In this document: piece after piece, positions 32,600 to 51,797 of the stretch
Layout of the letters: every line of letters begins with the position of its first letter
How positions within the stretch are numbered: position 1 is the first letter of the stretch
DNA from: an uncultured bacterium
Lineage (GTDB): Bacteria; JAGRBM01; JAHCIT01
Reading direction: 5' to 3'
Assembly (NCBI GenBank): GCA_964621525.1
Contig: CAZUMS010000007.1
Span: 2,015 to 66,014 of the forward strand
DNA length: 64,000 bases
Notes under the pieces: generated by a model
The model's database searches: none
The model's input: the letters and a program-made list of their open reading frames with translations, nothing else
Told to the model about the DNA's origin: nothing
Program-made: the position numbers and the translations under genes

Positions 32600-35500
32600 T
32601 CAGGGAGGTGGCAGGGTTGTGAACTCGAAGTCGCGGATTTCACCGTTATCCGCGCCAACCGAGTACTGGTGCACCGATCCGGCCGGGATCGACGGCGGAG
32701 TCGTCCGGCTCCAGACCGGGGTCTGGAGATTGATGAGCGTCAGGTTATTGCCCGAGCTGTCCCGCTCGCTGCTCGGCACTACCAGCCAGCCGGGACCGAC
32801 GATGGTAGCCCGGGGCGACGATGCCGGCGCATCAATGGTCGCCACTTTGACCGGGCTGCTGAAGGTAACGTCAGTTCCGCCCACGGGGGCCACCGTGTAC
32901 TGGGACGTATCCAGCACATAGATCCGCTTGAACGGAGTGACTGTCCGGTTCACCAGAACGAAGGCAGCGGAACCGTGCGTCCGTATTTCGATAACAGTAC
33001 CGCCGCCGCCCGTCTCCAGATTGAGCGGGAACGTCTTGGGCGTAAGCACGGAGGCATCCTTGGGCCGGCAGACCGATTCGGCACATCCGCCACCAGAGCG
33101 CCAGCGCCAGAACTGGGTCAGGTCGATGGTCGATACCTTCAGTGTGGCGCCAGTCGTACCGGCTGCGAACGCCCGGTCGCCTTCGATCCTGAGTGCTTCA
33201 ACGGAACGCGGATAGGCGTCATTGCCCGACCCGCGTTCGACTGTGCGGCTGTTGCCCGCCTGGAAGTTCACCTGGCAGTTGGCATTAAAATCCGCTGCGC
33301 TCAGATTGTCGAGATTCAGCCAGAACAGGCGCGCGGCATCCACGCTGCCGGCCGAGTAACCAACCAGCAGCAGATTGTCTCGGATCGCAAACGACTGCGG
33401 CAGTGCGCCTGTGATCGGATCAGTAACGATTTCAATCTGCTTTACGTTAACACAATGGCTGCCGTCGGCGATTGGAGTAACCAGGTTCACTTCTGCCCCG
33501 GTGTTCAAGTCATGCGCGACGATCCGGTACTGGGACAGCTGGATCTGGGCAATCGAATAGACCCGTTCTCTGCCCTCATCGACTATCACCGAATGGATAC
33601 CGTAACCATCGGCATCCGCCGACGTATCGGTGCTTAGGCCGTTCACGCCCGGGAGGTCCGCATTCTGGTCCAGCTCTGCATCCACCTGCGGATCAATCAC
33701 ATTGAGATCGTGACGGCCGGTGACGCCAGGATCCTCGCTCACGAACAGCACGCTCTCGCCAACGGAGGTCCCGTAGTAGAACGACTTCTCGATTCGGTCG
33801 AGGCGCTGGATGGCTCCTGTCGGCGAATACCCGGTGTTGATCCGGACACTCTGTTCGCCCGTCACGTTGTCGGTATCCACAGCCCTTGCGACGTAGAGGG
33901 GCGGCGCAATCTCAGTGAAATCACGCTGCTCGGCAACCGCAATGGCATTCGCGGCCGGCATCGTGACGAAAATCCGCTGCCGTGCGTCGGTCTCCGCCAG
34001 ATCATACGCGATGCGGGTCCAGACGCCACGGGCATCGCCCGCGAACAGGTTCGGGTAGGCTTCGGTCGCCTCGAATGGAATTTCGTTATAGGTGAGCGGC
34101 GGATACGGCGAAGCCTGGAGCCAGGGTTTATTGGCGTGTCCGGCATCCGGAGCCTGCCGTTCGTGACGGAACTGGAGGAGCTGGCTCGTGGTCGAATTGA
34201 ACAGGAAGCCCAGCTTGTCAGTGGCCGCAATAACCGTGGCGCCGCCATTCTGGTTGGCCGGCGGACCGCCGAGGTTAAAGACATTCTCCGCCTCGGCGAG
34301 AACATTCTGTCCCTGCATTTCGGCGCAGAGCGTCTCCTGGCTCACAGAAGGCGGGCCGCTGTCGGCGATACCGTCGTAGACCCGCAAGCAGCCGAGGTCG
34401 TCCGTCTGCAGCGTGTTGTTGTTTCCGGGGTCGAACAGATTCAGCATCGCCACCGTCGTCGGCGTCGTATCGGTACCGGCGTTCTTGAAGCCGTTGGAAA
34501 TCGAGATCATCAGCGTAAACCGGTCGTCGCGGTCGTTGATATCGGAGCCCGTTGTGTCCCGGTCGTCACGCACCGAGACCGCGTGAGCGAGGGCGCGGAC
34601 AATGCCTCCGCCCAGGGTTGCGGTGCGGGCCGACTGCGTACGGGTGAGCGTGATGCCGGCGGGGAGTCCCGAAGCGTTGAAACTGCCGTTCATGTCCACG
34701 ACGTTCATGCTGTCCATGATGCGGAACTGGGTAATCGTGCCCGGCGGAAGCCCGTCACATCCGTCTGCCCGGATCGTGAACCGGATGGGGTCGCTGGCAT
34801 GCAGGCCGACCACGGTATACCGGTATACGCGGGAACCGCCGCCCGAGGTCTTGAGCAGCAGGACGTCCTGCGGCTGAATACGGTCATCGGCGGTCGCCCG
34901 GATACCGTCGGTACCGTACAGCCCGCCCCCGGGGAGTCCTGCGACGGCCACATCGACGTCCACCGGAACCGTGACGATATCGTCTTCCTCGCGCTGGTCC
35001 GGGGTCGTATTTGGCGAACCTGTCACGCGGCCGTTCGGATCCAGCACACACTGGTGGTTGCTGTAGCCCTGACCTGACCCCGTACCCGTCAGGATACCGT
35101 CGAATGAAATCGTAAGGCCCAGCCCCGGCCGGCTGGAAGGCAGGGGAAGTCCCGAGCGGGACAGGTCGGGCCGGACATCAACCGGGTAGACGCTCTGCGG
35201 CCGGTCATTGAGGGCATCGGCACTGGGATCGTTCGTCGTCGCCCGCACCGTCAGAAAGCCGATATCCCGCCGCACCCGGCCTTCGAGCGAATAAGGTACC
35301 TGGGGCTTCTCGAACCGGAACGGTTGCCAGAACCGGAGAGGCCGGTTCGAGTAGCGGTAAACATTTTCGTATGCACCGCCCGGCTGGAACTCGGCATACG
35401 TCAGCGTGAACTGATCGGACAGGAAATCTCCCGGAAGGTTCGTCTGCCGGCCCAGGATCATCGTGATACCGGTGTTCCGGTTCGGGTCCGGGACTGGAAC

Positions 35501-38500
35501 ACTGACGGAATCCGCGCCTGGAGCTCCGGCACAGCTGCCGGACTGGGCGGCGATGTAATTATCCGGAATCGTGTCCCCATTGGTATCGAAACAGACGCTC
35601 GACTGGAGCGCCGAATAGGAGCTCGTATAGGGATCAAAATCCGTGTCGATTTCACAGAGCACCCATTCCCGGCTTCCGGGCACCTCGGGCTCCTGACAGA
35701 GCGCCGTCGTGTACCCGTAACAGGGACTCCCGCCGCAGGCCGTGTTCCCCTGGAACGGGAATCGGATCTCCTCATCGTCGGTCCACTCGTCACCGTCCGT
35801 TTCATCGGATTCAGGATCGGGAGTCAGGGAAAACACGGAGAGTCCGCCGTGGGTAGGACCGCCAGTATTGGGGTCCGATTCCACCACCGCGTAAAGATAG
35901 GCCTCGTCGTCCATGTCCCGGTCGCCATCACCGTCGCTGTCCTGATGGTCTACGACGAGCTGTGTGGCACCTGCAAAGGAGAGCGTCGCCGAATAATCCG
36001 TTTCCCGCAGGGCCAGCAGCGGAATCACGCCCGAGGGCTGAGGAGTGCCGGTTGTCGCGACACTCGTGTCCGGACGGTCGAAATGGAGCTGGTTGTCGAA
36101 GTCGAGGCTGAGGTTGAAGACGTACAGGACGTTGTAGATCGGGTCCGAAACGAACACCCGTCCCATCGTGACACCGTCGATACCGCCGTCCGGAGCGAAG
36201 ACCGCGGCATAACGCGGCGACACCGGAATCGTGACACCCGAAGACTGGCGGCCCTGGCACGGCGCGGTGAACACCGGCGGCGCGTTCGGATCAAGGGCGC
36301 TTTCACAGGACGGACCACGGTCGGGATAAGGTACACGGATCCGGGTGATGCCGGGCTCGGCCCGGAGACTGGTCGTAAATTGGTCGTTATCCCCATCGAT
36401 TTCCCGGTACCGGGATACGATCCGGAACTCGACCCCCGGCACCGATACCTGCACTGGATTCAAGGTACCGTTCAGTACCAGCCGGTTCGAAGCGCCGGGG
36501 ACACCCTCCACCGCCGTGATGACCCGCCGGGTTTCGAGCGGAGATCCGGGACGTACGATCAGCACGTCGCCGGCCGATACCGAGCAGTCGTTGCTCGCAT
36601 CCGCCGTGAAATCCCCGAGGTCGATGCCGCGATTGCAGTCGTAATTGCGCTCGACGAGGAAATCGGAGGAGAGCGACTCCACAACGTTGTTGGTCGTGCC
36701 GCCCACAAGGTTCAGGTCGTTGCCCTGCACAAGCACTTCCTCGGCGATCCGGATAACGGAGAGATCGCCGCTGCCCGAGTTCACGACGACGGCGCGGTCC
36801 ATGAGCGGCTGCCCGTCCTCTCCGAATGCTCCCGGATCGGAACTGAAGAAGGCGATTCCGAGCGGCTTCAGGCCGCTGGATCGGATGGTCTGAAGACCGA
36901 AAGTCTGGTCCGTATCCACGCTGGCGACTTCCGGCGTCGCAGTGCTGTAATCGATACCGATCCGGTCAAGCTGCGAAAGCGTCCGGTTCGAGACGTAGCC
37001 GACATCAAAACGGCTCGTGTAACTCACCAGTTTCGAAACGGAAGCTTCCCCGGTGCAACCAACGTCATCATAGACCGTCAGTGCGATCTGTCCGGTTTCC
37101 GGGGGCGGCGTGAGCGTCAGTTCGAAGCGGCCCTGATTCACGTCGCCGGTATTCGTGAGTCCGACGCCACCGGTAATCCCGTTCGAGATATTCACGCAAT
37201 TCGTAATGCCCGCCCCGTCGTCGGCCTTGACCGAATAGCGCGTGTTGCTGACGCCGCTTCCGAAGGGCGACGGGTCATCCGGAGATTTCACCACCGAGCC
37301 CAGGGCGCCCCGGACAATAAAGCTGCTGACAATGGTGCCGTCAGAACCGGCGGAAAGGTTGTTCTCGATCGGGTGGAAGATCTCGACCCGGGCGATATTC
37401 ACCGGCGGGGGCGGACGGTTCAGGAGACCCAGGGCGAACCGGAAATCAACGAAGGTCGAAGGCCGCGCCGTGATAGCCGCCCGCACGGTAAGGACTCCCG
37501 CCGAGGCGCTTCCGGTGAATAGTAAATCCTGTGATGCCGCACCCGACGCGGTCGTTATCGCCCGCTGGTTCGGAGGAACTTGCTGATCGACCGGACACAG
37601 GCTCGGATCTCCGCCCGAAAGGTCGACAGACGGGAGCGTCGCAAACCCGCTGGACTGCACCGCATAGGTGACGCAAACCGGTGCTTCGGCCGAATCCGGG
37701 GCCGGACGTCCCCACTGGTCGCGGACCATGACGCCCATGGCGTACGGGCCGAGATCGTTCGTGAGATCGGCCTCGCGGTCAGCCTGCGTGACTTCGCTCG
37801 TGTACTCGATCGTCGTTCCGGCAGGACGCTCGGCCCGGACCCGGAACGTCACACCCGTTTCCGGAACCACCGGGACGGCATTGGTGAATGTCCCAGGCAC
37901 CGGATTGGTCGTCGAAGTCGCGCGGACCACGTACTCGCCGCTGACGACGGAAGCACTGGCCGACCCGCCCGTAGTGATGTTCGCCCGGACCGCGGGACTG
38001 CCAGTGCACAGCAGCGTCGTGCCGGGGCTTCCGCACGAGGAACCCGAACCCTGCGACAGTTGGGGCAGCGTGAGGCCGCCGACCGCTTCCCCCGGCGAGT
38101 TCTGGTACTGAATGCTGATGGTCGATGATACCGGCACGCCATAACGGTCGATGATGTTCACGGTGAGCGGTGCAGCTTCCGGCGTCTCGGCCGCGAAGTT
38201 GCTCGCACAGGTCGTGTTGAACGGACAGATCTGCCCCGAACCGGAAACGATCTGAATGACGCCCTGGTCCGCATCGGCCACCGGCAGCACGAACTGGGTG
38301 GCGGTCGTCGGGATGAACTCGGCCCCGAAGACGTTCGTCACGATCGCCTCGACGACCACCTCGCCGGAAGCACAAGTATCCAGCGGTGTGACCCGCACCT
38401 GCGTACGCCCGGCTCCGTCAATCGGCAGCGTCAGATCAAAGTCGGTATCGTTCAGCAGCGCAGGACAGTTGCCCACGATATCCACCCGGAAAGTGACGTA

Positions 38501-39469
38501 AGGCGCCGTCAGGGGATCGGCGGTGTACGACGTCGCCGGTTGCTGCGCCACAAGGTCGTAGACGAAGGTTTCGAGCGGAACGCCGAGTTCGATGAGCGGG
38601 AATCCCGCCTGCCCGTTTCCGCCGAGCGCCGTGATATCCAGCGAACCGCGGGCGAACGTGTACGAGTTCTGAGCCGTCAGCTCCTCCGGAGTCGCCTGCA
38701 GCACCGTACCAGCGTCCGGCCCATCGTTATCGACGATAAGCACCTGGACGGCCGCAGTGACCTGGAACTCGCCGGGCGGCAGTTCCCCGTTTGCATTCGG
38801 AGTCAGGATCTGGATCTGGGTATCGCTAATCGAGATGAATCCCATGCCGTCGGGAGCGCAGTCGACCGAGGCCGGCGTCATCCCGAACGGAACGTCGCAT
38901 TCCAGCCGCACTGCCGGACCGGAAGGCTGCGGGAAGATAAAGGCAACACGCAGGATCTGGCCCGCCTCAACCTCGAAACCGCCGCCAGCGATCGTCACCG
39001 GGTCGGCTCCGAAGGTATCTCCGCTCGACGGATTGATTGCTCCCGCCGACAGCAGCGCAAGTCCCTCCCCGAGGTTGATCTCCCCAAGGATCGCCTTTTC
39101 GATAATCAGCACGTCGCCGAGGGTGATATCACCCGCGTCGTTTGCGGCATTGTCATCGCCGCCCAGGAATCTCGTGGCAAGATCCGGGTAACGCACTTCC
39201 CCCGGCAAACAGGTAATGCAGGGAGCAAGCGGGAACACGTTCGCGGAGTTCAGCTCCGCCACCGTCGGTTCCACTCCCCGTAACGCGAAGGAGCGGATTA
39301 GCAGCAGGTCGCCGAGGGTAATCAGCCCGTCGGGGTTGCCTCGTGGATAGATGTCGCCGAACCGGCCTGCGGCACGGGCGTCGCCTGCTACCAAGGTCAC
39401 GGCAAACAGCGCCGCCGCGAGCCACGCTCGCGGCCGGGACCGCCCTGGTGCCGTCAGAAAGCTTTTCAT
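32600..39469 (-). CDS. Giant (2289 aa) secreted protein of unknown function with duplicated dockerin-like N-terminal motif and YVTN-type beta-propeller-like strands
   Basis: Uninterrupted 6.87-kb ORF with coding-like codon usage; signal peptide MKSFLTAPGRSRPRAWLAAALFAVTLVAGDARAA; duplicated motif GLITLGDLLLIRSFAL / GDITLGDVLIIEKAIL; segments such as VGYVSNRTLSQLDRIGIDYS and AVVVNSGSGDLSVIRI; Gly/Thr/Asp/Pro-rich. Confidence 0.8.
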   Translation of the reverse strand: MKSFLTAPGRSRPRAWLAAALFAVTLVAGDARAAGRFGDIYPRGNPDGLITLGDLLLIRSFALRGVEPTVAELNSANVFPLAPCITCLPGEVRYPDLATRFLGGDDNAANDAGDITLGDVLIIEKAILGEINLGEGLALLSAGAINPSSGDTFGADPVTIAGGGFEVEAGQILRVAFIFPQPSGPAVRLECDVPFGMTPASVDCAPDGMGFISISDTQIQILTPNANGELPPGEFQVTAAVQVLIVDNDGPDAGTVLQATPEELTAQNSYTFARGSLDITALGGNGQAGFPLIELGVPLETFVYDLVAQQPATSYTADPLTAPYVTFRVDIVGNCPALLNDTDFDLTLPIDGAGRTQVRVTPLDTCASGEVVVEAIVTNVFGAEFIPTTATQFVLPVADADQGVIQIVSGSGQICPFNTTCASNFAAETPEAAPLTVNIIDRYGVPVSSTISIQYQNSPGEAVGGLTLPQLSQGSGSSCGSPGTTLLCTGSPAVRANITTGGSASASVVSGEYVVRATSTTNPVPGTFTNAVPVVPETGVTFRVRAERPAGTTIEYTSEVTQADREADLTNDLGPYAMGVMVRDQWGRPAPDSAEAPVCVTYAVQSSGFATLPSVDLSGGDPSLCPVDQQVPPNQRAITTASGAASQDLLFTGSASAGVLTVRAAITARPSTFVDFRFALGLLNRPPPPVNIARVEIFHPIENNLSAGSDGTIVSSFIVRGALGSVVKSPDDPSPFGSGVSNTRYSVKADDGAGITNCVNISNGITGGVGLTNTGDVNQGRFELTLTPPPETGQIALTVYDDVGCTGEASVSKLVSYTSRFDVGYVSNRTLSQLDRIGIDYSTATPEVASVDTDQTFGLQTIRSSGLKPLGIAFFSSDPGAFGEDGQPLMDRAVVVNSGSGDLSVIRIAEEVLVQGNDLNLVGGTTNNVVESLSSDFLVERNYDCNRGIDLGDFTADASNDCSVSAGDVLIVRPGSPLETRRVITAVEGVPGASNRLVLNGTLNPVQVSVPGVEFRIVSRYREIDGDNDQFTTSLRAEPGITRIRVPYPDRGPSCESALDPNAPPVFTAPCQGRQSSGVTIPVSPRYAAVFAPDGGIDGVTMGRVFVSDPIYNVLYVFNLSLDFDNQLHFDRPDTSVATTGTPQPSGVIPLLALRETDYSATLSFAGATQLVVDHQDSDGDGDRDMDDEAYLYAVVESDPNTGGPTHGGLSVFSLTPDPESDETDGDEWTDDEEIRFPFQGNTACGGSPCYGYTTALCQEPEVPGSREWVLCEIDTDFDPYTSSYSALQSSVCFDTNGDTIPDNYIAAQSGSCAGAPGADSVSVPVPDPNRNTGITMILGRQTNLPGDFLSDQFTLTYAEFQPGGAYENVYRYSNRPLRFWQPFRFEKPQVPYSLEGRVRRDIGFLTVRATTNDPSADALNDRPQSVYPVDVRPDLSRSGLPLPSSRPGLGLTISFDGILTGTGSGQGYSNHQCVLDPNGRVTGSPNTTPDQREEDDIVTVPVDVDVAVAGLPGGGLYGTDGIRATADDRIQPQDVLLLKTSGGGSRVYRYTVVGLHASDPIRFTIRADGCDGLPPGTITQFRIMDSMNVVDMNGSFNASGLPAGITLTRTQSARTATLGGGIVRALAHAVSVRDDRDTTGSDINDRDDRFTLMISISNGFKNAGTDTTPTTVAMLNLFDPGNNNTLQTDDLGCLRVYDGIADSGPPSVSQETLCAEMQGQNVLAEAENVFNLGGPPANQNGGATVIAATDKLGFLFNSTTSQLLQFRHERQAPDAGHANKPWLQASPYPPLTYNEIPFEATEAYPNLFAGDARGVWTRIAYDLAETDARQRIFVTMPAANAIAVAEQRDFTEIAPPLYVARAVDTDNVTGEQSVRINTGYSPTGAIQRLDRIEKSFYYGTSVGESVLFVSEDPGVTGRHDLNVIDPQVDAELDQNADLPGVNGLSTDTSADADGYGIHSVIVDEGRERVYSIAQIQLSQYRIVAHDLNTGAEVNLVTPIADGSHCVNVKQIEIVTDPITGALPQSFAIRDNLLLVGYSAGSVDAARLFWLNLDNLSAADFNANCQVNFQAGNSRTVERGSGNDAYPRSVEALRIEGDRAFAAGTTGATLKVSTIDLTQFWRWRSGGGCAESVCRPKDASVLTPKTFPLNLETGGGGTVIEIRTHGSAAFVLVNRTVTPFKRIYVLDTSQYTVAPVGGTDVTFSSPVKVATIDAPASSPRATIVGPGWLVVPSSERDSSGNNLTLINLQTPVWSRTTPPSIPAGSVHQYSVGADNGEIRDFEFTTLPPP

Positions 39470-39493
39470 CGCTCTGATCTCCTAACGGCCTTC

Positions 39494-42400
39494 TCAGGGT
39501 TGTCCGTAGTTCTTGTTGGAATGAACCGCCGTCGGCGGGTCGAACTTCAGCGGGGCATCTTGGATATCGGCTGCGGTAACGTATCGCTGGATTGACGAGT
39601 TCGCCGCCCCAGGAACAACCTGTGTAATTTCTCCGATACCAGGATCATAAGGGAGCCGGGTCGCCAGCGTATCACAGGGCCCTTCCGAGCAACGCTCCTT
39701 AATCGTAAAGCGCGTGCGGATCACTTCACGTGAACCCGGGCTTCCCGCCGGGAATATATAGGCATTGGAACCCGTCGACTGAAGGATTCGCACTCGATCA
39801 CTACCGGACTGCACAATCAAGTTATCCAAGAGTACGCCGAGTGGAGCCAGAAAGTCCTGGCCCGTGGGCGAAGCCGGATCGGTGGCGCTGTAAATTAGAT
39901 GGCCGTCGTTGAATTCAAAGACCAGCGTGAAACCGGCGAAATCCACCTGGCTCGAACCGGAAGTCCGGGTCATGGGGAACTGGTAGTTCACCTCGCGGCG
40001 CACGCTCTTCACGTTCACCGAGCCGCTCGTCTGACAAAGCGGCTGCTTGGCCACCGGGCAACCGTTCAGGGATGCAGTGACTGTGGTCGTCGCCGAGGAC
40101 GACGGCGCCAGCGCAGGATTACCGTCCGAGACGACGCAGGCCCGTCCCTGGAAGGTTGAGCCCACAAGGTCGGTGGCAACCGGCCCGCTCACCAGCGTGG
40201 TCTGGCAGGCGAACAGGGGATTGGCGCTCGGATTACCGCCGTTGTGACGATAGAGACTGCCGGTCGCACCCGAAAGGCTGAAATCGATGGGTGAGGTGGA
40301 ACCGGTATTGATATTGCCGCCGTTCAGCTTCTGGACCTTCACCACCGCCACCCGCGAGAAGAAACCGAGGTTACGGTAATCGGTATTCGCGCCGGCCGAA
40401 GTAATGCCGTATTCGGTGGCGAATGCCGCATTCGTTGCCGCGTGACGGGTGTAGATCGGGTCCGATGTCGGCACGCCGGAATTCAGGACTTCCGGATTCA
40501 CAAACTCGATTGTCACCCGGCCGGGCAGTTCGCCGTCCGGGGCAAGGTTAAATGTCACTTCGGACTGGACCAGCGTCACAGGATCGAGCTGCGGGCTTCC
40601 GGAGGTGGTCTCCTGCAGGCGCACGATCATCGCACCGGTCTGCGAAGCCGCACGGCTCGAGCTCCGGGCACGGACGTAAACAGCGGCAATACCGTCGACG
40701 ATGGGTTCGGTCACGTTGGCAATCGAGAAGTTGGTCGTTGCCAGACTGGGCGGACTACCCGTCGAATTGAAGATCGGGTTCATTCCCGACGTGACCACCG
40801 ACCCCTTGCCGAACTGAAGTTCGACGCCGTTGGATTCGCCGGAATCGCCATCGGCATCCGTTTCAACACCGTCCGCCGAACCGGCCGGATCGTCCACCGT
40901 TCCCGAAGAACGTCCCTTATCGATGAACCGGAGTGTGTAACCGGCATCGTTCGGCACCTGATAGGTAATCTCCGGATTCCCGCCGCCCGGGCACATGATC
41001 TGCCCGTCGACTGCCTGGCCGAAGTAAAGCTGACCGAAGGTCCGGACGCTGCACTCGTAATACATGCAGTCGCCGCCGTTCGGGAACGAACCCGATGCCC
41101 GGTTGTTGTTCGCCTCGATGGTCCGGCTGCTGCTGTTCTGGAGGCAGGCGGCAGGACTCGCAAAGGCCGGGACCTTGCGAGTGCAGGTCACTGCCACCGG
41201 CGACAAACAGCTGGGATTTACAACGACCGACTGGCTGTCCGACGGCAGGCCCACTGTCGAGGCGGACACCGGCGTTACCGACATGTTGATCCGGTAGGGA
41301 TTCGCCGGCGACGTGGCAACGAGCGGCGGCATCAGGAAGGCAAAACCGGTTTCGTTGTCGTCGAGATCGAGCGGCATCCAGCCTGCGGCGACCTCGTTCG
41401 TAATCGATAGATTGTCCTGACCGGCCGTCTGGACCGATGAGTTGTGATAAGCGCCCGAACCCCGGACTACATAGGGAGGCTGCGTCTGTTGCCCGGTATA
41501 CGTCATGCTGACGGCAACCTGTGTATCCTGGAACGTCGCATCTTCCTTGAGCTGGAAACAGTCGTCGTACGCGCCGAGATCGTTGACCGACCGGCAGGTG
41601 GACGGAAGGAGCTGAAGACGGAGCGGGATACGTGGAATATTGGTAATCCCTTCGCCGATCCGGTTGGAACAGATGTCTGCGGGAGTGCCGCGGAAAATGC
41701 CGAAGTCTCCACAGCGGGTATTCACCTCCGTCGAACAGGCCGACGAGTTGAATGCTCCACCCTCTGCAAAGCACTGGGGGGCATAGAGAATCGGCTTTTC
41801 CGGACACTGGGCGATCTTGAGCCCGGCGGTGTTCACGCCCGGCGTCACCGTACAACCACCAAGCGGCGTACTCGCGGCGGTCGGGTCCACCCACTTCACA
41901 ATGAAGGGGAGTGCCGGGTCCGGTCGCAGACGCAGACGGTTTTCCTCGCCGGCAACGCTCTTGCCGATGAAGTTCCGGGTTCCCCAGCCGCCCGCGTCCA
42001 CCGGCGCGAGAGCGGCCTGGCTGCCATAACGGCGGGTGGCCGGCGGCGTCGCCACCACGGGGCCGGCGGTGCTGAACTTGAGCTGCGGGAAGATCTTGGT
42101 AAAGCCCGCGCCGGAACGTACCTTGACCGAATTCCGCGTGACGCGGAGGAATACCGAGTTCACGCACGAATCGGCTGTACCAGAATCGCCGCAGGAAACC
42201 AGAATGCTGGGCGTCTTGGCGCCGTTGGCCGTCGAGCTGAAACCGCAATCGCTGGCGTTCAGAACGATCGAACTGTCGTTCGGATCAAGCGCGTTTTCGC
42301 AACTCACCTGGATCTGTGTGCCTTCCCGGAGGCAAACGACATTGCCGACACCGGGTGCATAAGCGTTGCAAGGCGCGTTCTGGGCATCTTCGTCGGCCGA

Positions 42401-43492
42401 GATGATGCGGATGTCGATGCGGAACTCGTCGGCCCGGCTCTGGCTGAGACCCACCCAGCCGTCAAGACCGCCGCCCGCGGGCGTTTCCGTCGGCAGGTTC
42501 GACAGTTCGGGGATATTCACCGGATTCGGCAGGAGGGCGTTCAGACGGGAAACAACACCCCAGTCCACACGGACCGGCGCGCCGACGTCCTCGAACACCG
42601 TCACCTCTTCATCGTCGAAAATCGCTCCGTTCCCCGAGAGTGCCGCCCGGACGGTAAGGGTTCCCCCGTCGGGATAGAGAGTCGTCGTGGTAAATGTGAC
42701 GCTTGCCGTGCCGTCAGCATCCAGCGTGACCGGAGTGGACGGAGTGAAGATGCCGAGCGGATCGGTCGAGGTGAAAATCAGCTGATAGGCTGCCGCCGGA
42801 GTCCCGGTAATCACATCGCCGTCCTGATTACGGAGCTGCGCCTTCACGGTTGTAGATCCGCCCGTCACGGTCAGCAGAAAGTCGTTGGCTTCGAAAATCT
42901 CGACCTCAGTGGGAATCGTCGGGTCGGGCTCGAAGACCACGTTGTTGATGTTCTGGATCAGCGTGGTGAGGTTCGGATTCCCCGAATCGATGTGCGATAC
43001 AGATACGCTGTAGTTACCGCTTTCAGTGGCGCGCACATAGAACGTCAGCGCCGCGCCGTCCGGAACTGCCGAGACCGTCACGGACTGGTAATGAACCGAG
43101 TCTGCCGCCGAATCGAGATGAATCCGGGCGCCCTCGGGCGCCGTCACGACCAGCCCGACCGGGGCCAGCGTCCCGGCCGCCTCGCCGGTGGCAGTGATCG
43201 ATGCCTGGATACGGTACTGCTCGACACCGTTGGCGATGCAGACCGTCGCGCCCGTCCCGGTGCAGCCAATTGCCGTCCGGGTTACGGACATGGAATATTC
43301 GACGTCGGTGGGAACCTCGACCGTGCGTGTTCCGCCACCACCACCGCCGCCGCCGCTACTGCCGCCGCCGCCACAACCCGCGCCGACGAGAACAACCGTC
43401 ATGAGCAGAACCCCCCAGCGCCAGCCGGAGAAAAACCGCTCTACAGAATTCCATTCAGTCATTGTTTTCCGAAAATACATCGCACTCTCCAC
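39494..43492 (-). CDS. Large (1332 aa) predicted surface lipoprotein of unknown function, Gly-linker then Cys-rich and Thr/Ser-rich regions
   Basis: Lipobox LVGAGC followed by GGGGSSGGGGGGGG linker; 4-kb uninterrupted ORF; ends 24 nt before the 2289-aa gene (same strand), suggesting an operon. Confidence 0.8.
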   Translation of the reverse strand: MESAMYFRKTMTEWNSVERFFSGWRWGVLLMTVVLVGAGCGGGGSSGGGGGGGGTRTVEVPTDVEYSMSVTRTAIGCTGTGATVCIANGVEQYRIQASITATGEAAGTLAPVGLVVTAPEGARIHLDSAADSVHYQSVTVSAVPDGAALTFYVRATESGNYSVSVSHIDSGNPNLTTLIQNINNVVFEPDPTIPTEVEIFEANDFLLTVTGGSTTVKAQLRNQDGDVITGTPAAAYQLIFTSTDPLGIFTPSTPVTLDADGTASVTFTTTTLYPDGGTLTVRAALSGNGAIFDDEEVTVFEDVGAPVRVDWGVVSRLNALLPNPVNIPELSNLPTETPAGGGLDGWVGLSQSRADEFRIDIRIISADEDAQNAPCNAYAPGVGNVVCLREGTQIQVSCENALDPNDSSIVLNASDCGFSSTANGAKTPSILVSCGDSGTADSCVNSVFLRVTRNSVKVRSGAGFTKIFPQLKFSTAGPVVATPPATRRYGSQAALAPVDAGGWGTRNFIGKSVAGEENRLRLRPDPALPFIVKWVDPTAASTPLGGCTVTPGVNTAGLKIAQCPEKPILYAPQCFAEGGAFNSSACSTEVNTRCGDFGIFRGTPADICSNRIGEGITNIPRIPLRLQLLPSTCRSVNDLGAYDDCFQLKEDATFQDTQVAVSMTYTGQQTQPPYVVRGSGAYHNSSVQTAGQDNLSITNEVAAGWMPLDLDDNETGFAFLMPPLVATSPANPYRINMSVTPVSASTVGLPSDSQSVVVNPSCLSPVAVTCTRKVPAFASPAACLQNSSSRTIEANNNRASGSFPNGGDCMYYECSVRTFGQLYFGQAVDGQIMCPGGGNPEITYQVPNDAGYTLRFIDKGRSSGTVDDPAGSADGVETDADGDSGESNGVELQFGKGSVVTSGMNPIFNSTGSPPSLATTNFSIANVTEPIVDGIAAVYVRARSSSRAASQTGAMIVRLQETTSGSPQLDPVTLVQSEVTFNLAPDGELPGRVTIEFVNPEVLNSGVPTSDPIYTRHAATNAAFATEYGITSAGANTDYRNLGFFSRVAVVKVQKLNGGNINTGSTSPIDFSLSGATGSLYRHNGGNPSANPLFACQTTLVSGPVATDLVGSTFQGRACVVSDGNPALAPSSSATTTVTASLNGCPVAKQPLCQTSGSVNVKSVRREVNYQFPMTRTSGSSQVDFAGFTLVFEFNDGHLIYSATDPASPTGQDFLAPLGVLLDNLIVQSGSDRVRILQSTGSNAYIFPAGSPGSREVIRTRFTIKERCSEGPCDTLATRLPYDPGIGEITQVVPGAANSSIQRYVTAADIQDAPLKFDPPTAVHSNKNYGQP

Positions 43493-43891: not shown

Positions 43892-46800
43892 GTGTCAGAA
43901 GAATCCAAAAGCGATCCTGGCAGTGGCCAGCTTCTACAGCTTCTGGCCGAACGGGAAGAACTGCTCGCCCGGCTGGCGCGTGAGACAGCCCGCGAACGGG
44001 CCGAATCGCTTGAGTTCGTCAACCGGTTCCGCGACACGATCGCCGAAAAGGACCGGGCTCTGGAAAAACTGGCTGCCGGGGCCTCGGCCTCGGACGCGCA
44101 ACTCCGGTCGGCGCAGGAAAGCATCAGGGAACTGACCGGCAGGCTCGATACTGCTGAAACCCGCCTCCTGGAAGAACAGCAGAAATCGGATGGCATCCGG
44201 GCATCCTTCGATTCCGAACTGAAGAACCGGGACTCGGAGATTCTGCGGCTCAGCCGTGAACTCGCCGGCGAAGCCGCCGCGAGGCAGCAGATCGAGAAGG
44301 AGTTCTCTGCTGCCCGCGACGACTGGCGCTCCAGTGAACAGCGCCTGCATCAGGAAACCGTCAATGCCCAGAGCGAACTGCGGCTTTTGCGAGAGCGCAG
44401 CGCCGCACTCACGGCTGAACGGGACGGCTTCGCCGCCCGGCTCGAAGCCGGTCAGGAACGGACCGGAGCTCTCGGCCGTGAACTCGATGAACTCCGGGAG
44501 AAGGCCCGCAGCCTCGAAAACTCGCTTGCCGGTTCCCATGCCGCCGCCGAAACGGAACGCACCCGGCTGAACGGGCAGATCGACACGCTGCACCGTGAGC
44601 GGGAGACACTCGGACAAAATGTCCAGCGGCTGGAACGCGAGACGGCACGGCTCGAGGCTCTGCTCCGTGAGGCTCACGAACGCCTTGCCGAACGCGAGCG
44701 GGGGCTCGCACAGCTTGCCCGCTCGGCAGCAGCCGAGCGTATGGAAGCGACAAGGCGGCTCGACGCCGCAGCCGCTTCGGCCCTCGAATCCGCACAGCGG
44801 ATCACCTCGCTAGAGAGCCGCCTCGAAGCGGCAGTCCAGGAGGCGAGAGTCCAGATGGCGCGGGCCGAGCGGACGGCCCTCGACCTCAAATCCGAACAGG
44901 AGGCCCGTGCCTCCGATGCAGCCCGGTTCCACGAAGAACTGAGAACGCTGGACCGCCAGATCGCCGATCTCCGCGAACACCGGGCCCGTGAACAGGAACG
45001 GCTCGTTTCGGCCGAAGCGCTCGCCGCACAGTTTCGCGAGGAGGCCGGGCGCGCCCGGAGCGAAGCCTCCCTCGAGGCCGCCCGTCAGCAGGAAACCTTG
45101 CTCGCCGAACAGGGCGAACATGCCCGCCGGATGGCCGCACTCGATTCACGTCTCGTGTCGCTGGAGGCGGAGCGCATGTCAGTCGCCTCGCGTGCAGCCG
45201 CCGCCGAAACGGAGGCCGAAGGGCTCCGCCGGCAGCTCGCCGGACTTCAGGACGTGTTCCAGCAGATCCGGAGCGACAGCGCAGCCGCGTCCGGCCAGAA
45301 CCAGCAGACGATCCAGCAGGCAATCCAGAACTGGGAAAGCGTCTCCGCCGCAGCGGGCGCCCAGAGCGGCAAGCTGGCTCAAACCGTTTCCGAGCTGGAA
45401 AGCCGCCTTTCGGAAATCGCACGCCGGCACGACGAACGGCGGGATGAGATCCTCAAGCTTGAGAACCTGCTCGCCGAACGGGAAAAAATCCTGGCCGATA
45501 TTGTCGGCGGGCAGAGCGAGGAGGTCCGCCGCTACGAAAGCCAGCTTGAGGAGGCCCGTTCGCGAATTCGCAGCCTCGAAGCGGCCGTCACAGCATCTGG
45601 CGGCAGTCTGCCGGCAGCGCTGGCGGCATCAGACAGCGCGGGCTCGATCCAGGATGAGCTCGCCCGCCTCCGGGCGGAAACGCACGGTCTCTCCAAATCG
45701 CTCGATGCCGCCGTCCGCAAGGCAATCGCCGAAAGCGGGCGTTCGCCGGAACTCGCCGGGCAACTGGCACGGATCGAAACGAAACTCTCGGCTTTGAACG
45801 CCGAGGACCGGGACCGGCGGTTCGCCGAACTTCTTCAGGCCGCACAGGCCGACGCCAGGCAGGTTCAGGAGCAGGTGCGAACGGAGCTGCGCAACCTGCT
45901 CCAGAAGATTTCCGGAAGCCCTCAGGGCCCGAAGGACCCGCTCCGCCTCGATCCGGCGGATCTGAAACGTATCCAGACGGATATCGATCAGCGCCTGACC
46001 CGCAGCGAACGGCAGGTAAACGATCTTGCCGCAGCTTTCGAGAACTTCATCCGGCAGCCGCAGACGACGCCGAATTCCGGCGCGCTGGCAAAAACCATCG
46101 AGGCGGTCCGGACGGAAACCCGTGCTTCGACGGAACTCCTCCGGCGCGAAATCGCGGCCATCGCCGCCCAGACGCCGGGGACGGCAGCGGCCAAAACCGC
46201 CGATCTCAAGCTCGCCACCCAGCTCGCCGCCCTCGAAAAGCGGTTACCGCTGCCGGGCACGCGGATGGCCGGAACGGACCGGGCGATAGCCGCCACCATC
46301 GCCGCCGCCGGGTTCCTGCTGATCGTCTTCGGTCTTGCGGGCGTCGCCTGGCGGCAGTGGAGGCTCGAAAACCGTCTTCTTACCTCTTATCAACCAGAAC
46401 TCTTCTCGGGCAGGTCCGCCGCTTCGGCGCTGGAAGCGCCGGAACTCGATACTCCCCTGCCCTACGAAACGGATGGAGATCAGGCAGAAATTTCGGGGCG
46501 GGCCTCACAGGCCCAGGGAGTCGTCATGCACATCGATGGCGTGTTTTTCGCAGCCGTCCCTGTGCGGGGAGGAAAATTCCTCGTGGACCGGATCCCGCTC
46601 GAACCCGGCAGCCACCGGGTCGAACTCTGGGCGTTTACGCCCGGGCAGGGGTTCTCGCCGCCCGTATCCGGAGATTTCGTCCGCAGGCAGTCGGCCGAAG
46701 CCGCACGGATTACCGAGCCGCCCCGGACAGTCCTGACCGGCCTGAACGTGGAACGCGGCCCCACCGACCGCCGCGAGATCGGCCTTACGTTCGATGGCGA

Positions 46801-47452
46801 CGGCGCGGCCGGTGCCGAAGTCGTCATGGACACCCTTAGGCAGAAGCGAATCCAGACGACAGTGTTCCTCACCGGTAAATTTATCGACGAGAACCCAGCG
46901 CTCGTACGCCGCATCGTCCAGGACGGCCATGAGGTCGGCAACCACACGGACACGCACCCGCACCTCACCACCTTCAATGAGAACAACCGCCACGACACCC
47001 GGCCTGAAGTGAACAAGGCGTGGTTTCAGGACGAACTGGTGCGGACATCGGCGAAATTCGAAGAGGTGACGGGGAAACCCATGTCGCACATCTGGCGGGC
47101 GCCCTACGGCGAGGTGAACGCCGAAATCCTCCGCTGGGCGCACGAACTGGGCTACCGGCACGTTGGCTGGACGCGGGACTATACGCGGAGCCTCACGCTC
47201 GACTCGCTGGACTGGGTCATCAACCACAGGGACAAGAACTACCAGCCCGGCGGAAAGATCGTGGACCGGCTTCTCAGCTTCGAGCGGAACTCCCGTGACG
47301 GCGTCAACGGGGGGATCGTGCTGATGCACCTCGGCACCCAGCGCCAGCTGGACGACTCCGTTGCCCTGCACCTGCCCCGGCTCATCGATGAATGGCGGGA
47401 CCGCGGCTACCGGTTCGTGAAAGTCTCGACGTGGCTTCCCGAAGAATCCTGA
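43892..47452 (+). CDS. 1186-aa fusion protein: N-terminal ~780-aa coiled coil, one TM helix, beta-sandwich-like linker domain, C-terminal NodB-type polysaccharide deacetylase (CE4)
   Basis: GTG start; Ala/Glu/Arg/Leu-rich heptad-like sequence for ~780 aa; TM AIAATIAAAGFLLIVFGLAGVAW (46283-46360); NodB motifs TFDGDG, HTDTH (H-S/T-x-x-H), RAPY (RxPY), LMH. Confidence 0.8.
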   Translation: MSEESKSDPGSGQLLQLLAEREELLARLARETARERAESLEFVNRFRDTIAEKDRALEKLAAGASASDAQLRSAQESIRELTGRLDTAETRLLEEQQKSDGIRASFDSELKNRDSEILRLSRELAGEAAARQQIEKEFSAARDDWRSSEQRLHQETVNAQSELRLLRERSAALTAERDGFAARLEAGQERTGALGRELDELREKARSLENSLAGSHAAAETERTRLNGQIDTLHRERETLGQNVQRLERETARLEALLREAHERLAERERGLAQLARSAAAERMEATRRLDAAAASALESAQRITSLESRLEAAVQEARVQMARAERTALDLKSEQEARASDAARFHEELRTLDRQIADLREHRAREQERLVSAEALAAQFREEAGRARSEASLEAARQQETLLAEQGEHARRMAALDSRLVSLEAERMSVASRAAAAETEAEGLRRQLAGLQDVFQQIRSDSAAASGQNQQTIQQAIQNWESVSAAAGAQSGKLAQTVSELESRLSEIARRHDERRDEILKLENLLAEREKILADIVGGQSEEVRRYESQLEEARSRIRSLEAAVTASGGSLPAALAASDSAGSIQDELARLRAETHGLSKSLDAAVRKAIAESGRSPELAGQLARIETKLSALNAEDRDRRFAELLQAAQADARQVQEQVRTELRNLLQKISGSPQGPKDPLRLDPADLKRIQTDIDQRLTRSERQVNDLAAAFENFIRQPQTTPNSGALAKTIEAVRTETRASTELLRREIAAIAAQTPGTAAAKTADLKLATQLAALEKRLPLPGTRMAGTDRAIAATIAAAGFLLIVFGLAGVAWRQWRLENRLLTSYQPELFSGRSAASALEAPELDTPLPYETDGDQAEISGRASQAQGVVMHIDGVFFAAVPVRGGKFLVDRIPLEPGSHRVELWAFTPGQGFSPPVSGDFVRRQSAEAARITEPPRTVLTGLNVERGPTDRREIGLTFDGDGAAGAEVVMDTLRQKRIQTTVFLTGKFIDENPALVRRIVQDGHEVGNHTDTHPHLTTFNENNRHDTRPEVNKAWFQDELVRTSAKFEEVTGKPMSHIWRAPYGEVNAEILRWAHELGYRHVGWTRDYTRSLTLDSLDWVINHRDKNYQPGGKIVDRLLSFERNSRDGVNGGIVLMHLGTQRQLDDSVALHLPRLIDEWRDRGYRFVKVSTWLPEES

Positions 47453-48809: not shown

Positions 48810-50528
48810 TCAGACCGGCAGATCGACACCTTTTGCGAGAAGCGCGCGGCGCTCCAGCATGGATCGCAGTGCTTCAAACCGGCCACGCCAGTCCTGCTGG
48901 CAGAGCCGCGTCCGTTCTTCCGGGGAGAGTGAAACCCGGATACCATACAGATGTTCCAGCTCAAGAAGCATTTCGTCGATCAGGATCGAGACACTGTCGG
49001 ATCTGAGCGGCACGCCGGACAGCCGGACCACCGGAATCTGGACACCGCCGAACTGGTCGGAGCCGAACAGGCCGCCAGGACCGAACCGCTCCTTGGGCAG
49101 CGGACTCCAGACCACAACTTTGGCGCCATCCTGAAGCAATGCCCCGAGCGCGAATTCGAACTTGGGCCGCGCAACCGGCGAGGAAGCGTCGATCCAGAGC
49201 AGTGCACGCTCGGGCTCCGTCACGGCTCCGAGCAGCGCTCTCGCCGCCCGCTGCTCGTCCTCCTCGCGCGCGGGATAGACGGCCTCATGGAGTTTCGTCC
49301 GGCCAGATGCCGCCAGCAGCGCATGGGCGACAAAACCAGGATGCTCACCTTCCAGCAGAATGACCCCGGCTCCGTTCCGGATCGCTCCGAAGACGGCCTG
49401 TGAGACCGTGAGCACCTCGGGGGCAGCCGAAGGCCAGAGCAGTTCGGGCGAACCGGAAATGCGGCTCTCGTTGCTCCAGCCGGTGAGCCGGATTCGGCTC
49501 TCCGGGTTGAGGACCGCCTGTCCCGGCCGGAGCCGGCGCAGCAGGCCGTCCAGCCGAACCATGTCCTTTCGGCCGTACAGCTTCGATCTCGCCTCGGGCG
49601 CCAGCCGGATCGCCGGCACGCCCCCGCCTGGTCCTTCGAACACGAGGCCCACCGGACTCTCCATCATGCCGGACAGCCGCTCAACGAGTGCCTCCACCGA
49701 CGGAAGTTCGGCCACCATTTTTTCCAGCCGGGCAAGTTCCCCGAGGAACCGCGACCGTTCGTTCGGCCACAGATTGCCTATCGAGCCGAAGAGGTCGGGG
49801 AGCGCATCCGAAATCACGATCCGCGTGTAGACCGTGACCGGCACCATCATCAGCCCCGGACCGACGAAATAAAGATGATTGTCATCGAACAGGACCGGCA
49901 GCACCTGATTGGTCATCATGACCACCGCAAAGGTTCCGAAGAACGTCGCCGCCGCGATCAGGATGCGGTTGCGGTTGTTCCAGCGGATCCGAAGCCAGTT
50001 GCGGTGGATCCACCAGATCTCGAACCCGAACAGTCCGAAATGGAAAAGCGAGGGGAGCATCATCAACGGGCCATAGTGCCAGACCGGCTGCCCGTGCTCG
50101 ATCGTCACCGATTCGATCGTGAGCGGCGTCAGAACCGCCGGCAGGTGTGTGGCGATCCCGAGCACGAGCACCGGCACAGCCAGTCTGGGGGACGGAGGCT
50201 CGAGTGTGGCGAAAGCCAGGAGGAGAAAGAACCCCGCAGGATGACCGACGGCCGGGCCCACGAAAGCGAGGCGTCCGGCGATGAGCAGTGCCTCCTCCGA
50301 ACCGGCCAGCCAAATGCCTGCATAGGCGAATATCCAGGCGGCAATACTGAGACTCAGTACAAATGCCCAGTACCCTGACGAAGGAATCAGGCTCCGCTTC
50401 CAGGCCACGCAGCCCGCCGTGATCGCATAGATACCGAACAGAGCCAGAAGCATGATGCTAACCAGTACAGTAGCCTTCCCGGAAGAAATAGCTTCCGTGC
50501 TTCGAAAATACCTGACTCCAGTATACAA
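48810..50528 (-). CDS. 7TM receptor (7TMR-DISM-like) fused to a degenerate sigma-54-activator AAA+ domain; no DNA-binding domain
   Basis: Seven predicted TM helices in the first ~260 aa. C-terminal region aligns motif by motif to bEBP central domains (ILLEGEHPGFVAHALL vs LITGESGTGKE..ARAIH; closing ...CQQDWRGRFEALRSMLERRA vs ..YDWPGNVRELENVIERA). Walker A Lys, Walker B DE and GAFTGA are absent. Confidence 0.65.
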   Translation of the reverse strand: MYTGVRYFRSTEAISSGKATVLVSIMLLALFGIYAITAGCVAWKRSLIPSSGYWAFVLSLSIAAWIFAYAGIWLAGSEEALLIAGRLAFVGPAVGHPAGFFLLLAFATLEPPSPRLAVPVLVLGIATHLPAVLTPLTIESVTIEHGQPVWHYGPLMMLPSLFHFGLFGFEIWWIHRNWLRIRWNNRNRILIAAATFFGTFAVVMMTNQVLPVLFDDNHLYFVGPGLMMVPVTVYTRIVISDALPDLFGSIGNLWPNERSRFLGELARLEKMVAELPSVEALVERLSGMMESPVGLVFEGPGGGVPAIRLAPEARSKLYGRKDMVRLDGLLRRLRPGQAVLNPESRIRLTGWSNESRISGSPELLWPSAAPEVLTVSQAVFGAIRNGAGVILLEGEHPGFVAHALLAASGRTKLHEAVYPAREEDEQRAARALLGAVTEPERALLWIDASSPVARPKFEFALGALLQDGAKVVVWSPLPKERFGPGGLFGSDQFGGVQIPVVRLSGVPLRSDSVSILIDEMLLELEHLYGIRVSLSPEERTRLCQQDWRGRFEALRSMLERRALLAKGVDLPV

Positions 50529-50669: not shown

Positions 50670-51797
50670 TTGTCCGAGCCTCTCTACATTGTCGGACAGA
50701 ATGATTCGCTGATCCTGACGATCAGCGAGTGGGCATGCCGCCATGGGCTCGATGCCACCCGCAAGGAATCCGGGCGGATCCAGCCGCCGGGACGCCTGGT
50801 CTGGATCGCGGAGCGTTACGCCTCAGAGATTCCCCGGGAGTTGCTGCCCCTGATTGCCAGCTTCCCGAGCCTCGCCTGCCTGCCTCACGATGCCGAAGCC
50901 CTTGCCCGTAAGTGCATCGATACCGGTTTCGCTGAGCAGGTGTTCATCCCGACCTCCGAACGCGTTCTTTGCTCTAAACTGGAATTGCTTATCGATAATA
51001 CGAAATCCACGGACGCCGGCGGATACACCGGCCACGGCACCATGATGCTTGCTTCCCTTGCGGCTTCGCTGGCAGGACGCCGCACGCTGGAACTCGCCCG
51101 TCAGTCGGCCCTGCTCCCTGCTCCTGTCCTGCTTGCCGGTGAAGAGGGCGTGGAGTTCGAACCACTCGCACGGGCCGTCCATGCTGCCGGGCTGCGTTCG
51201 GTTGGACCGTTTGTGAGAGTCGATGCCTCCACGACTGGCGACCGGATGATGTCCGAACGGATCCCCGAAGCCTGTGGCCAGGCAGCCGGAGGGACACTAT
51301 TCATTCACCGTGTGGATATGCTCGATCCCGACGCACAGAAAATCCTTTCCTTCAGGCTCTCCATGCGAAATCCCGGAGGACGGGAACCCAGCGGCTGGAA
51401 GCTGATCGCATCGTCGGTTTCCAGTCTCGATGCACTCGCGCGGAGCGGGAACTACCTTCGCACGCTTGCCGACCAGCTCTCTGTTTTCGTGCTTCAGATT
51501 CCGCCCGTGAGGGAGCGCCTGGACGGTTTTGCGGTACTCTGCAGCGAACTGCTCCGGGAACTTGCCGCGCAGCTCAAGGTTCCCGAAAAGCGGCTTAGTC
51601 CCGAGGTGACGAAGCAGCTTGCCACCTGCCGATGGCCATTCAATGTCGCTGAACTGCGGGCCGTTCTGGAGAACGGAATGAGCCGTTCCCTCGGCGACGA
51701 AATCGGTGTTGAAGAGATCAGCCTGCCGGGCGAGACCAGCCCGCTGGAGCGGAAGCTGTGGCTCACACCTGACGGACAGGGCGGCAAGCCAAACTGA
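50670..51797 (+). CDS. Pseudo-receiver domain fused to a degenerate sigma-54-activator AAA+ domain; no GAFTGA and no HTH
   Basis: Central region aligns to NtrC: VLLAGEEGVEFEPLARAVHAAGLRSVGPFVRVDAS / GGTLFIHRVDMLDPDAQKILSFRL / IPPVRERLDGFAVLCSELL / RWPFNVAELRAVLEN; Walker A GEEGVEFE (Lys lost), Walker B DE lost, GAFTGA loop deleted. N-terminal ~110 aa are REC-like without the acceptor Asp. Confidence 0.7.
   Translation: MSEPLYIVGQNDSLILTISEWACRHGLDATRKESGRIQPPGRLVWIAERYASEIPRELLPLIASFPSLACLPHDAEALARKCIDTGFAEQVFIPTSERVLCSKLELLIDNTKSTDAGGYTGHGTMMLASLAASLAGRRTLELARQSALLPAPVLLAGEEGVEFEPLARAVHAAGLRSVGPFVRVDASTTGDRMMSERIPEACGQAAGGTLFIHRVDMLDPDAQKILSFRLSMRNPGGREPSGWKLIASSVSSLDALARSGNYLRTLADQLSVFVLQIPPVRERLDGFAVLCSELLRELAAQLKVPEKRLSPEVTKQLATCRWPFNVAELRAVLENGMSRSLGDEIGVEEISLPGETSPLERKLWLTPDGQGGKPN

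Follow-up and report, generated by a model that had tools for sequence, protein, structure and literature searches.

A probable diverged dockerin-type module at the N-terminus of a giant secreted protein of an uncultured bacterium

We analysed a 64,000-nucleotide stretch of DNA from an uncultured bacterium (contig CAZUMS010000007.1, positions 2,015 to 66,014; hereafter the window). An open reading frame (ORF) on its reverse strand (32600-39469) encodes, by translation, a secreted protein of 2289 amino acids, called here the giant protein. Residues 34-135 (39065-39370, reverse strand), at its mature N-terminus, form a module that is very probably homologous to dockerins. We consider it reasonably probable that this is a diverged, non-cellulosomal dockerin-type module, stabilised by calcium, which docks the giant protein to a partner in the cell envelope. 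The module was delimited through profile search, hhalign, AlphaFold2 and Foldseek. Its homology to dockerins is supported transitively, since the module is joined to a subfamily of compact modules at an expectation value (E) of 3e-8, and this subfamily is joined to the Pfam family Dockerin_1 (PF00404) at 2.3e-9 and to dockerins of solved structure at 2.6e-7. Because it failed the PF00404 cut-off, we class the module within the dockerin superfamily as a diverged representative; it falls in the GDxAPxGxPDG subfamily and has an enlarged second loop.

A profile of four module sequences, run by hmmsearch exhaustively against 1.84 billion representative proteins (E <= 1e-3), brought out the intermediate subfamily. 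Seventy-nine proteins were matched, among them compact two-repeat modules down to E 3e-8; these values were computed before any selection and are an unbiased statistic. Compact modules of about 65 residues with two repeats made up 73 of the matches, and the rest were orthologues of the giant protein and one chimeric call (P0018). The approximate consensus of the subfamily is xDGDxAPxGxPDGxxNxADxLxxxRxxLGxxTPTxxELxHGDVYPxGxPDGVINxxDxLLxxxxxL. Its loop has the pattern GD-x-[AY]-P-x-G-x-P-D-G-x-[IV]-x-x-x-D and differs from the canonical calcium loop of 12 residues by four inserted ones, 'AP-x-G'. These follow position 1, the Asp in 'GD', and precede 'x-P-D-G', which occupies positions 3-6.

The subfamily itself is assigned to the dockerins on two grounds. 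Fifty-five of the 73 compact modules match Dockerin_1 at E <= 0.01, the best at 2.3e-9, and the subfamily profile matches solved type-I dockerins across both repeats (2CCL_B, 2.6e-7; 1OHZ_B, 1.5e-6), together with 4FL4_A, 8ZVK_A, 4DH2_B and more. The hybrids P0034 and P0055 carry a canonical first repeat ('GDVNGDGKVD') and a variant second repeat ('ADVYPxGxPDG'), from which it follows that either loop type can take the place of the other in a single dockerin. A precomputed PF00404 match is present in 6 of the 120 relatives listed, so the subfamily lies at the edge of Pfam detection.

Three placements were seen for the subfamily modules. Some close a protein at its very C-terminus, often preceded by thrombospondin-type-3 repeats or carried by a subtilisin-like protease. 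Others immediately follow the signal peptide of a large protein (for example P0051, 1855 aa; P0067, 1243 aa; P0072, 876 aa), and others again make up stand-alone proteins of 75-120 aa composed of a signal peptide and the module only. Where source names were given, they were mostly 'hypothetical protein' of a Gammaproteobacteria metagenome-assembled genome (MAG). Stand-alone modules occur in many gammaproteobacterial MAGs (P0009, P0010, P0012, P0016, P0019, P0123, P0083 and others). The 240-aa P0018 contains a 32-residue stretch, FALGAAVPSASELNAANVFPLAPC, which is nearly identical to the P0004-type module and is fused to a membrane-protein-like sequence with no relation to it; a chimeric or frameshifted gene call from metagenome assembly is the probable cause.

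When the module was compared with the compact subfamily by hhalign, the alignment covered the full two-repeat module at 99.3% probability with a single gap of 27 residues; the E-value of this comparison is inflated because the subfamily had been selected with the module's own profile, and it should be discounted to that extent. Repeat 1 and the linker, with the variant loop and the LG...PT..EL pattern, match the subfamily fully. For repeat 2 the agreement is confined to the start ('ANVFPL') and the end ('GDITLGD' and the helix), with an insertion between. All parts of the module lie on the reverse strand. Repeat 1 (residues 38-63, 39281-39358), placed by alignment to solved dockerins, the model helix and invariant residues, consists of G38-D39 (position-0 Gly and Asp), the four-residue insertion YPRG, N45-P-D47-G-L-I-T-L-G-D54 and helix 1. 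The inter-repeat linker (residues 64-75, 39245-39280) contains the 'PT..EL' common to the subfamily and a short helix 2, at residues 70-76 of the AlphaFold2 model. Repeat 2 begins with residues 76-82, 'ANVFPLA' (39224-39244), the counterpart of 'GDVYPxG' by hhalign and MAFFT. It is then interrupted by the 27-residue second-loop insertion PCITCLPGEVRYPDLATRFLGGDDNAA (residues 83-109, 39143-39223), a gap in both alignments, and the independent MAFFT alignment agrees with hhalign on its position. The loop resumes as N110-D-A-G-D114-I-T-L-G-D119 and is followed by helix 3 (117-127); this last part (residues 110-129, 39083-39142) was recognised from a sub-threshold Dockerin_1 match, the alignments and the model. 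The two repeats are thus in register, both loops being interrupted, by four and by about 27 residues.

The second-loop site is a hot spot for insertions in the subfamily, with 5-6 residues in about twelve members, about 9 in P0050 and about 15 in P0060. The insertion contains CxxC in the four close orthologues of the giant protein; in the distant orthologue P0005 the cysteines are differently spaced and in P0008 there are none, so CxxC is not essential to the clade. From their positions in the loop, D39, N45, D47 and D54 of repeat 1 are candidate calcium ligands; position 3 varies among the orthologues.

Two motif copies, GNPDGLITLGDLLLIRSFAL and NDAGDITLGDVLIIEKAIL, are present in the translation of residues 38-133, as the preliminary description of this DNA had claimed, and the region maps exactly to 39358-39071. 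That description had also remarked on an atypical spacing of 65 residues between the copies. The spacing is present, but the second repeat unit starts at A76-N77, where 'ANVFPL' corresponds to 'GDIYPR', and not at residue ~105. D39 and N77 lie 38 residues apart, matching the canonical 34-36 once the four inserted residues are counted; the 65-residue spacing arises from the 27-residue insertion within the second loop. A loose regular expression for the motif found two sites only across the six frames of the window, and local alignment of residues 34-75 with residues 76-141 gave a score of 42 against 22.8 +/- 4.4 for shuffled sequences (z = 4.3), a score reached by 8 of 5000 shuffles. On these two results we take the duplication as real and beyond chance.

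The motif copies are conserved over a long evolutionary distance. A word-indexed search of 5.8 billion proteins returned the giant protein itself and three orthologues with 58-61% identity, and the exhaustive representative search added P0005 and P0008 (2205 and 2200 aa, ~30% identity). The five orthologues measure 2200-2329 aa, and both copies are kept in them, down to ~30% overall identity. A word-indexed single-sequence search with residues 31-150 gave no match. When representative genomes were scanned, relatives turned up in two only, an uncultured-bacterium MAG at 58% identity and a Bdellovibrionota MAG at 29%. Among the six sequences compared (the giant protein and its five orthologues, about 30-63% identity), G38, D39, P42, G44, P46, D47, G48, G53 and D54 of repeat 1 are invariant, as are A76, N77, V78 and P80 at the start of repeat 2 and D111, D114 and D119 at its end; I115 and V120 are invariant or conservatively replaced.

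Through AlphaFold2, with a 67-row subfamily alignment as input and the module as its first row, we obtained a model with a mean predicted local distance difference test (pLDDT) of 84.6 and a predicted template modelling score of 0.79. The predicted helices span residues 52-62, 70-76 and 117-127; in the insertion the confidence was lower (block means 64-84). In the Foldseek comparison of this model with the PDB, 8 of the 11 matches were dockerins. The top match was 2CCL_B, with a probability of 0.90 and a template modelling (TM) score on the target of 0.70; 1OHZ_B, 5M2O_B and 5N5P_B had TM scores on the target of 0.74, 0.64 and 0.58. We regard the predicted dockerin fold as supportive, not decisive.

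The module resembles the type-I dockerins of PF00404, such as that of Clostridium thermocellum Xyn10B (1OHZ_B, 2CCL_B), in its two tandem loop-plus-helix repeats with a short helix between. Repeat 1 shares with them Gly at position 0, Asp at positions 1 and 12, D-G at positions 5-6 and a hydrophobic residue at position 8. The inter-repeat register is also shared, and the predicted three-helix fold has its best PDB matches in 1OHZ_B and 2CCL_B. Unlike type-I dockerins, the module has four extra residues (Y-P-R-G) in repeat 1, an insertion of 27 residues in loop 2, no Asp at positions 1 and 5 of loop 2, and a score under the Pfam cut-off. Type-I dockerins are usually C-terminal, whereas the module is N-terminal, in a high-GC host with no cellulosome context and no detectable cohesin. 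The variability of dockerin sequences and the convention of the position-0 Gly are covered by PMC3821032.

With the subfamily members the module shares the four-residue loop insertion and the 'LG...PT..EL' pattern of linker and helix, and with several large subfamily proteins the placement straight after the signal peptide. The clade of the giant protein differs from them in a second-loop insertion of 27 residues against 0-15, in 'ANV' for 'GDV' and 'ND[AP]GD' for 'xPDG', and in the linked, conserved gene for a lipoprotein. EF-hand proteins such as troponin C have a like 12-residue loop, D-x-[DN]-x-D-G...D, followed by a helix, and the subfamily profile matches troponin C weakly (E 0.06-0.1). 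Unlike these proteins, the module has no entering helix (F-hand only), and the pairing geometry and family similarity point to dockerins.

Several results weigh against the reading of a calcium-stabilised, docking dockerin-type module. The gathering threshold of Dockerin_1 in Pfam is 22.9 bits, and this family, the only one reported for the module region, scored 14.3-15.6 bits (14.3 for a 150-aa fragment, 15.6 in the orthologue scan). It was matched by three of the four orthologues (best E 0.0045), with profile positions 5-25 covering the second motif copy only, and it still scored 14-19 bits after the insertion was deleted in silico. A profile of the four orthologues found no dockerin in the PDB, only noise (eIF2B-gamma, E 0.064). 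The hhalign comparison of six orthologous domains with four solved dockerins gave a probability of 3.7%, with repeat 1 in the correct register. The Foldseek E-values were non-significant, the best being 0.22, as is expected for a fold of ~60 residues broken by a 27-residue insertion. AlphaFold2 gave a pLDDT of 37 with the four orthologues alone, and the good model depends on an alignment of dockerin-like sequences. In addition, loop 2 is non-canonical, with Asn77 in position 1 and either Ala or Pro in position 5; having lost both Asp residues and being interrupted by 27 residues, it is a doubtful calcium-binding loop as judged from its sequence.

A resemblance to dockerins by chance or composition, in a region unrelated to them, would fit the direct comparisons with canonical dockerins, all of which were sub-threshold, and the Foldseek E-values of at least 0.22. 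We consider this explanation highly improbable: the hmmsearch values reached 3e-8 in 1.84 billion proteins before selection, the subfamily so matched is itself significantly dockerin, both repeats align in register over the whole module, and the residues concerned are invariant across orthologues of ~30% identity. The 4-residue and 27-residue loop insertions explain how a real relative was missed by Pfam. The proposal in the preliminary description of dockerin F-hands gained its support via the intermediate family and the structure prediction, although the direct Pfam and profile tests stayed below threshold. The Pfam check it suggested reported Dockerin_1 and no other family, but under the cut-off, and the combination of no profile match with a non-F-hand fold, named there as contrary evidence, was not what we found.

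A role of the module in protein docking seems somewhat likelier than not. The module would fold around calcium, at least in loop 1, as other dockerins do. The face formed by helix 1 and helix 3 would then bind a partner protein non-covalently, and the giant protein, docked in this way, would be tethered at the cell envelope. The partner may be the lipoprotein encoded immediately upstream, which would then be a receptor whose sequence does not reveal it as a cohesin.

Non-cellulosomal dockerin-like modules have long been known as widespread (Peer et al. 2009, reference 42 of PMC10066038 and reference 38 of PMC3821032), and PMC10066038 reports them on giant ORFs as possible adhesin elements. The dockerin-cohesin pairs of Clostridium perfringens toxin complexes, cited in PMC3821032 (its refs 16, 29, 30), are non-cellulosomal and their binding has been demonstrated. 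They are a precedent for a docking role, in which the dockerin fold assembles secreted proteins outside cellulose degradation. However, those pairs have recognisable cohesins and binding shown by experiment, whereas the module of the giant protein is known from sequence and has no detectable cohesin. Such modules are numerous, with almost none having a known partner or role, and the module described here is an entry point to a poorly annotated subfamily, one common among environmental Gammaproteobacteria.

Against a docking role, we know of no subfamily member with an experimentally known partner, no cohesin was detected by sequence elsewhere in an analysis that covered 64 kb of the genome, and the neighbourhoods of two stand-alone subfamily modules (loci L008 and L009) contained no cohesin or obvious partner. 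Calcium-binding repeats stabilise many secreted proteins, and the module might be a dockerin-fold calcium-binding cap with no dedicated partner, which stabilises the N-terminus of the giant protein in the calcium-rich exterior. The lack of a cohesin by sequence would agree with this, as would the frequent position of the subfamily module after thrombospondin-type-3 calcium-binding repeats (precomputed PF18884, PF02412); many non-cellulosomal dockerin-like modules are also said to have no known cohesin. A mere cap is not expected to stand alone, however, and proteins made of a signal peptide and the module are common. The helix residues (the L/I/V face and 'TLGD') are moreover conserved as strongly as the loop ligands, which fits a binding surface. 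We therefore consider the cap unlikely and prefer docking to a partner protein.

In every locus compared, the gene of the module-bearing giant protein directly follows that of one lipoprotein, which is a concrete candidate for the partner. The lipoprotein gene is co-oriented and upstream (39494-43492, reverse strand); it encodes 1328-1332 aa, the gene callers placing the start four codons downstream of a GTG, and 24 nt separate its stop from the start of the giant gene. In translation, its N-terminus (43360-43492, reverse strand) shows a Gly-Cys40 lipobox, invariant in the orthologues, and a long Gly/Ser-rich linker after it. The lipoprotein gene lies directly upstream of the giant gene in all five loci compared (the window, L001/L004, L003, L006 and L005), and in L005, from a Bdellovibrionota MAG at ~30% identity, the two ORFs abut. 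Since the pair is kept in all five, the lipoprotein and the giant protein are functionally linked. The conserved gene pair is the only positive evidence for this link, and it does not imply that the link runs via the module.

The preliminary description had suggested a cohesin-like module in this lipoprotein, and every sequence-level test for one was negative, which also counts against docking onto it. The Pfam scan of the lipoprotein and three orthologues found no Cohesin (PF00963) and no family beyond noise. A profile of the lipoprotein found no cohesin in the PDB, only single-chain variable fragment (scFv) chains, matches which we attribute to the Gly-rich linker. An hhalign comparison with a cohesin of C. 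thermocellum CipA gave a probability of 1.2%. The CipA match was a 17-residue 'YDP..EI' at the extreme C-terminus of the lipoprotein; it was too near the end and was dismissed as chance. The invariance of the gene pair across all loci nevertheless makes the lipoprotein the likeliest partner, a tentative candidate whose part in docking we hold to be doubtful.

The lipoprotein and giant genes form a cassette flanked by a divergent ORF of 1186 aa and by a housekeeping run of pyrG, rpoN, hprK and rapZ, an arrangement repeated in the four close loci; annotation of hpf and ptsN between rpoN and hprK is confined to the orthologous loci L001 and L006. In the 1186-aa ORF (43892-47452, forward strand), Polysacc_deac_1 was found at residues 956-1090 only, and the ~950 N-terminal residues are unannotated. 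In four of the five loci this ORF is conserved next to the lipoprotein/giant operon, in divergent orientation. The neighbourhood would suit a module that binds a non-protein component of the envelope, such as polysaccharide or peptidoglycan, and so anchors the giant protein to a glycan layer modified by the deacetylase. But the argument from neighbourhood is weak, the module has no resemblance to a carbohydrate-binding module, Dockerin_1 being its sole Pfam signal, and to our knowledge no dockerin binds carbohydrate. We thus consider glycan binding quite improbable.

We might speculate, with little expectation of being right, that the cassette is a new surface-anchoring system in which a lipoprotein receptor other than a cohesin is bound by a dockerin-type module whose second loop is enlarged. 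If so, a 2300-residue protein would be displayed on the envelope of a little-studied lineage, with a Bdellovibrionota MAG as its one named relative, possibly for adhesion to prey or surfaces, and the large, orphan GDxAPxGxPDG dockerin subfamily would gain its first receptor type. The assignment covers the first ~135 residues of 2289 (to 242 with a weak TIG-like domain), and its practical consequence will stay modest if no partner is established.

Elsewhere in the window are rpoN, a sigma-54 activator-like protein (50670-51797) and an AAA-lid-containing ORF (48810-50528). The sigma-54 promoter consensus TGGCAC-N5-TTGCW, with at most one mismatch allowed, had zero matches across the window.

The giant gene is preceded by a ribosome-binding site, AGGAG (39479-39483, reverse strand), read off the sequence 9 nt 5' of the ATG. 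Residues 1-33 (39371-39469, reverse strand) look like a general secretory (Sec) signal peptide; inspection of the translation revealed a basic n-region, a hydrophobic core and an A-R-A cleavage motif at the end, and this layout is repeated in the orthologues. A twin-arginine translocation (Tat) signal was ruled out, as the twin arginine is not kept among the orthologues. Directly after the module, residues 144-242 (38744-39040, reverse strand) may form an IPT/TIG-like Ig domain (Pfam TIG, E 0.0066, 16.9 bits against a cut-off of 20.9). This weak match was the only one when the giant protein was scanned against Pfam in ten pieces, and the remaining ~2000 residues had no match to Pfam or to PDB sequences. 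The NCBIfam scan gave no match for the giant protein, nor did its whole-protein profile against the PDB.

Residues 951-1029 (36385-36618, reverse strand) contain a conserved DDCSVSAGDVLIVRPG stretch with a faint, non-significant match to the module profile (1.5 bits); this resemblance is probably coincidental. At the C-terminus (32600-32630, reverse strand), ...IRDFEFTTLPP[PN] ends all four close orthologues, and by this comparison of translations it is a conserved tail. The distant orthologues are also Pro-rich at the C-terminus, ending in ...ATPPNP and ...LPPSAP.

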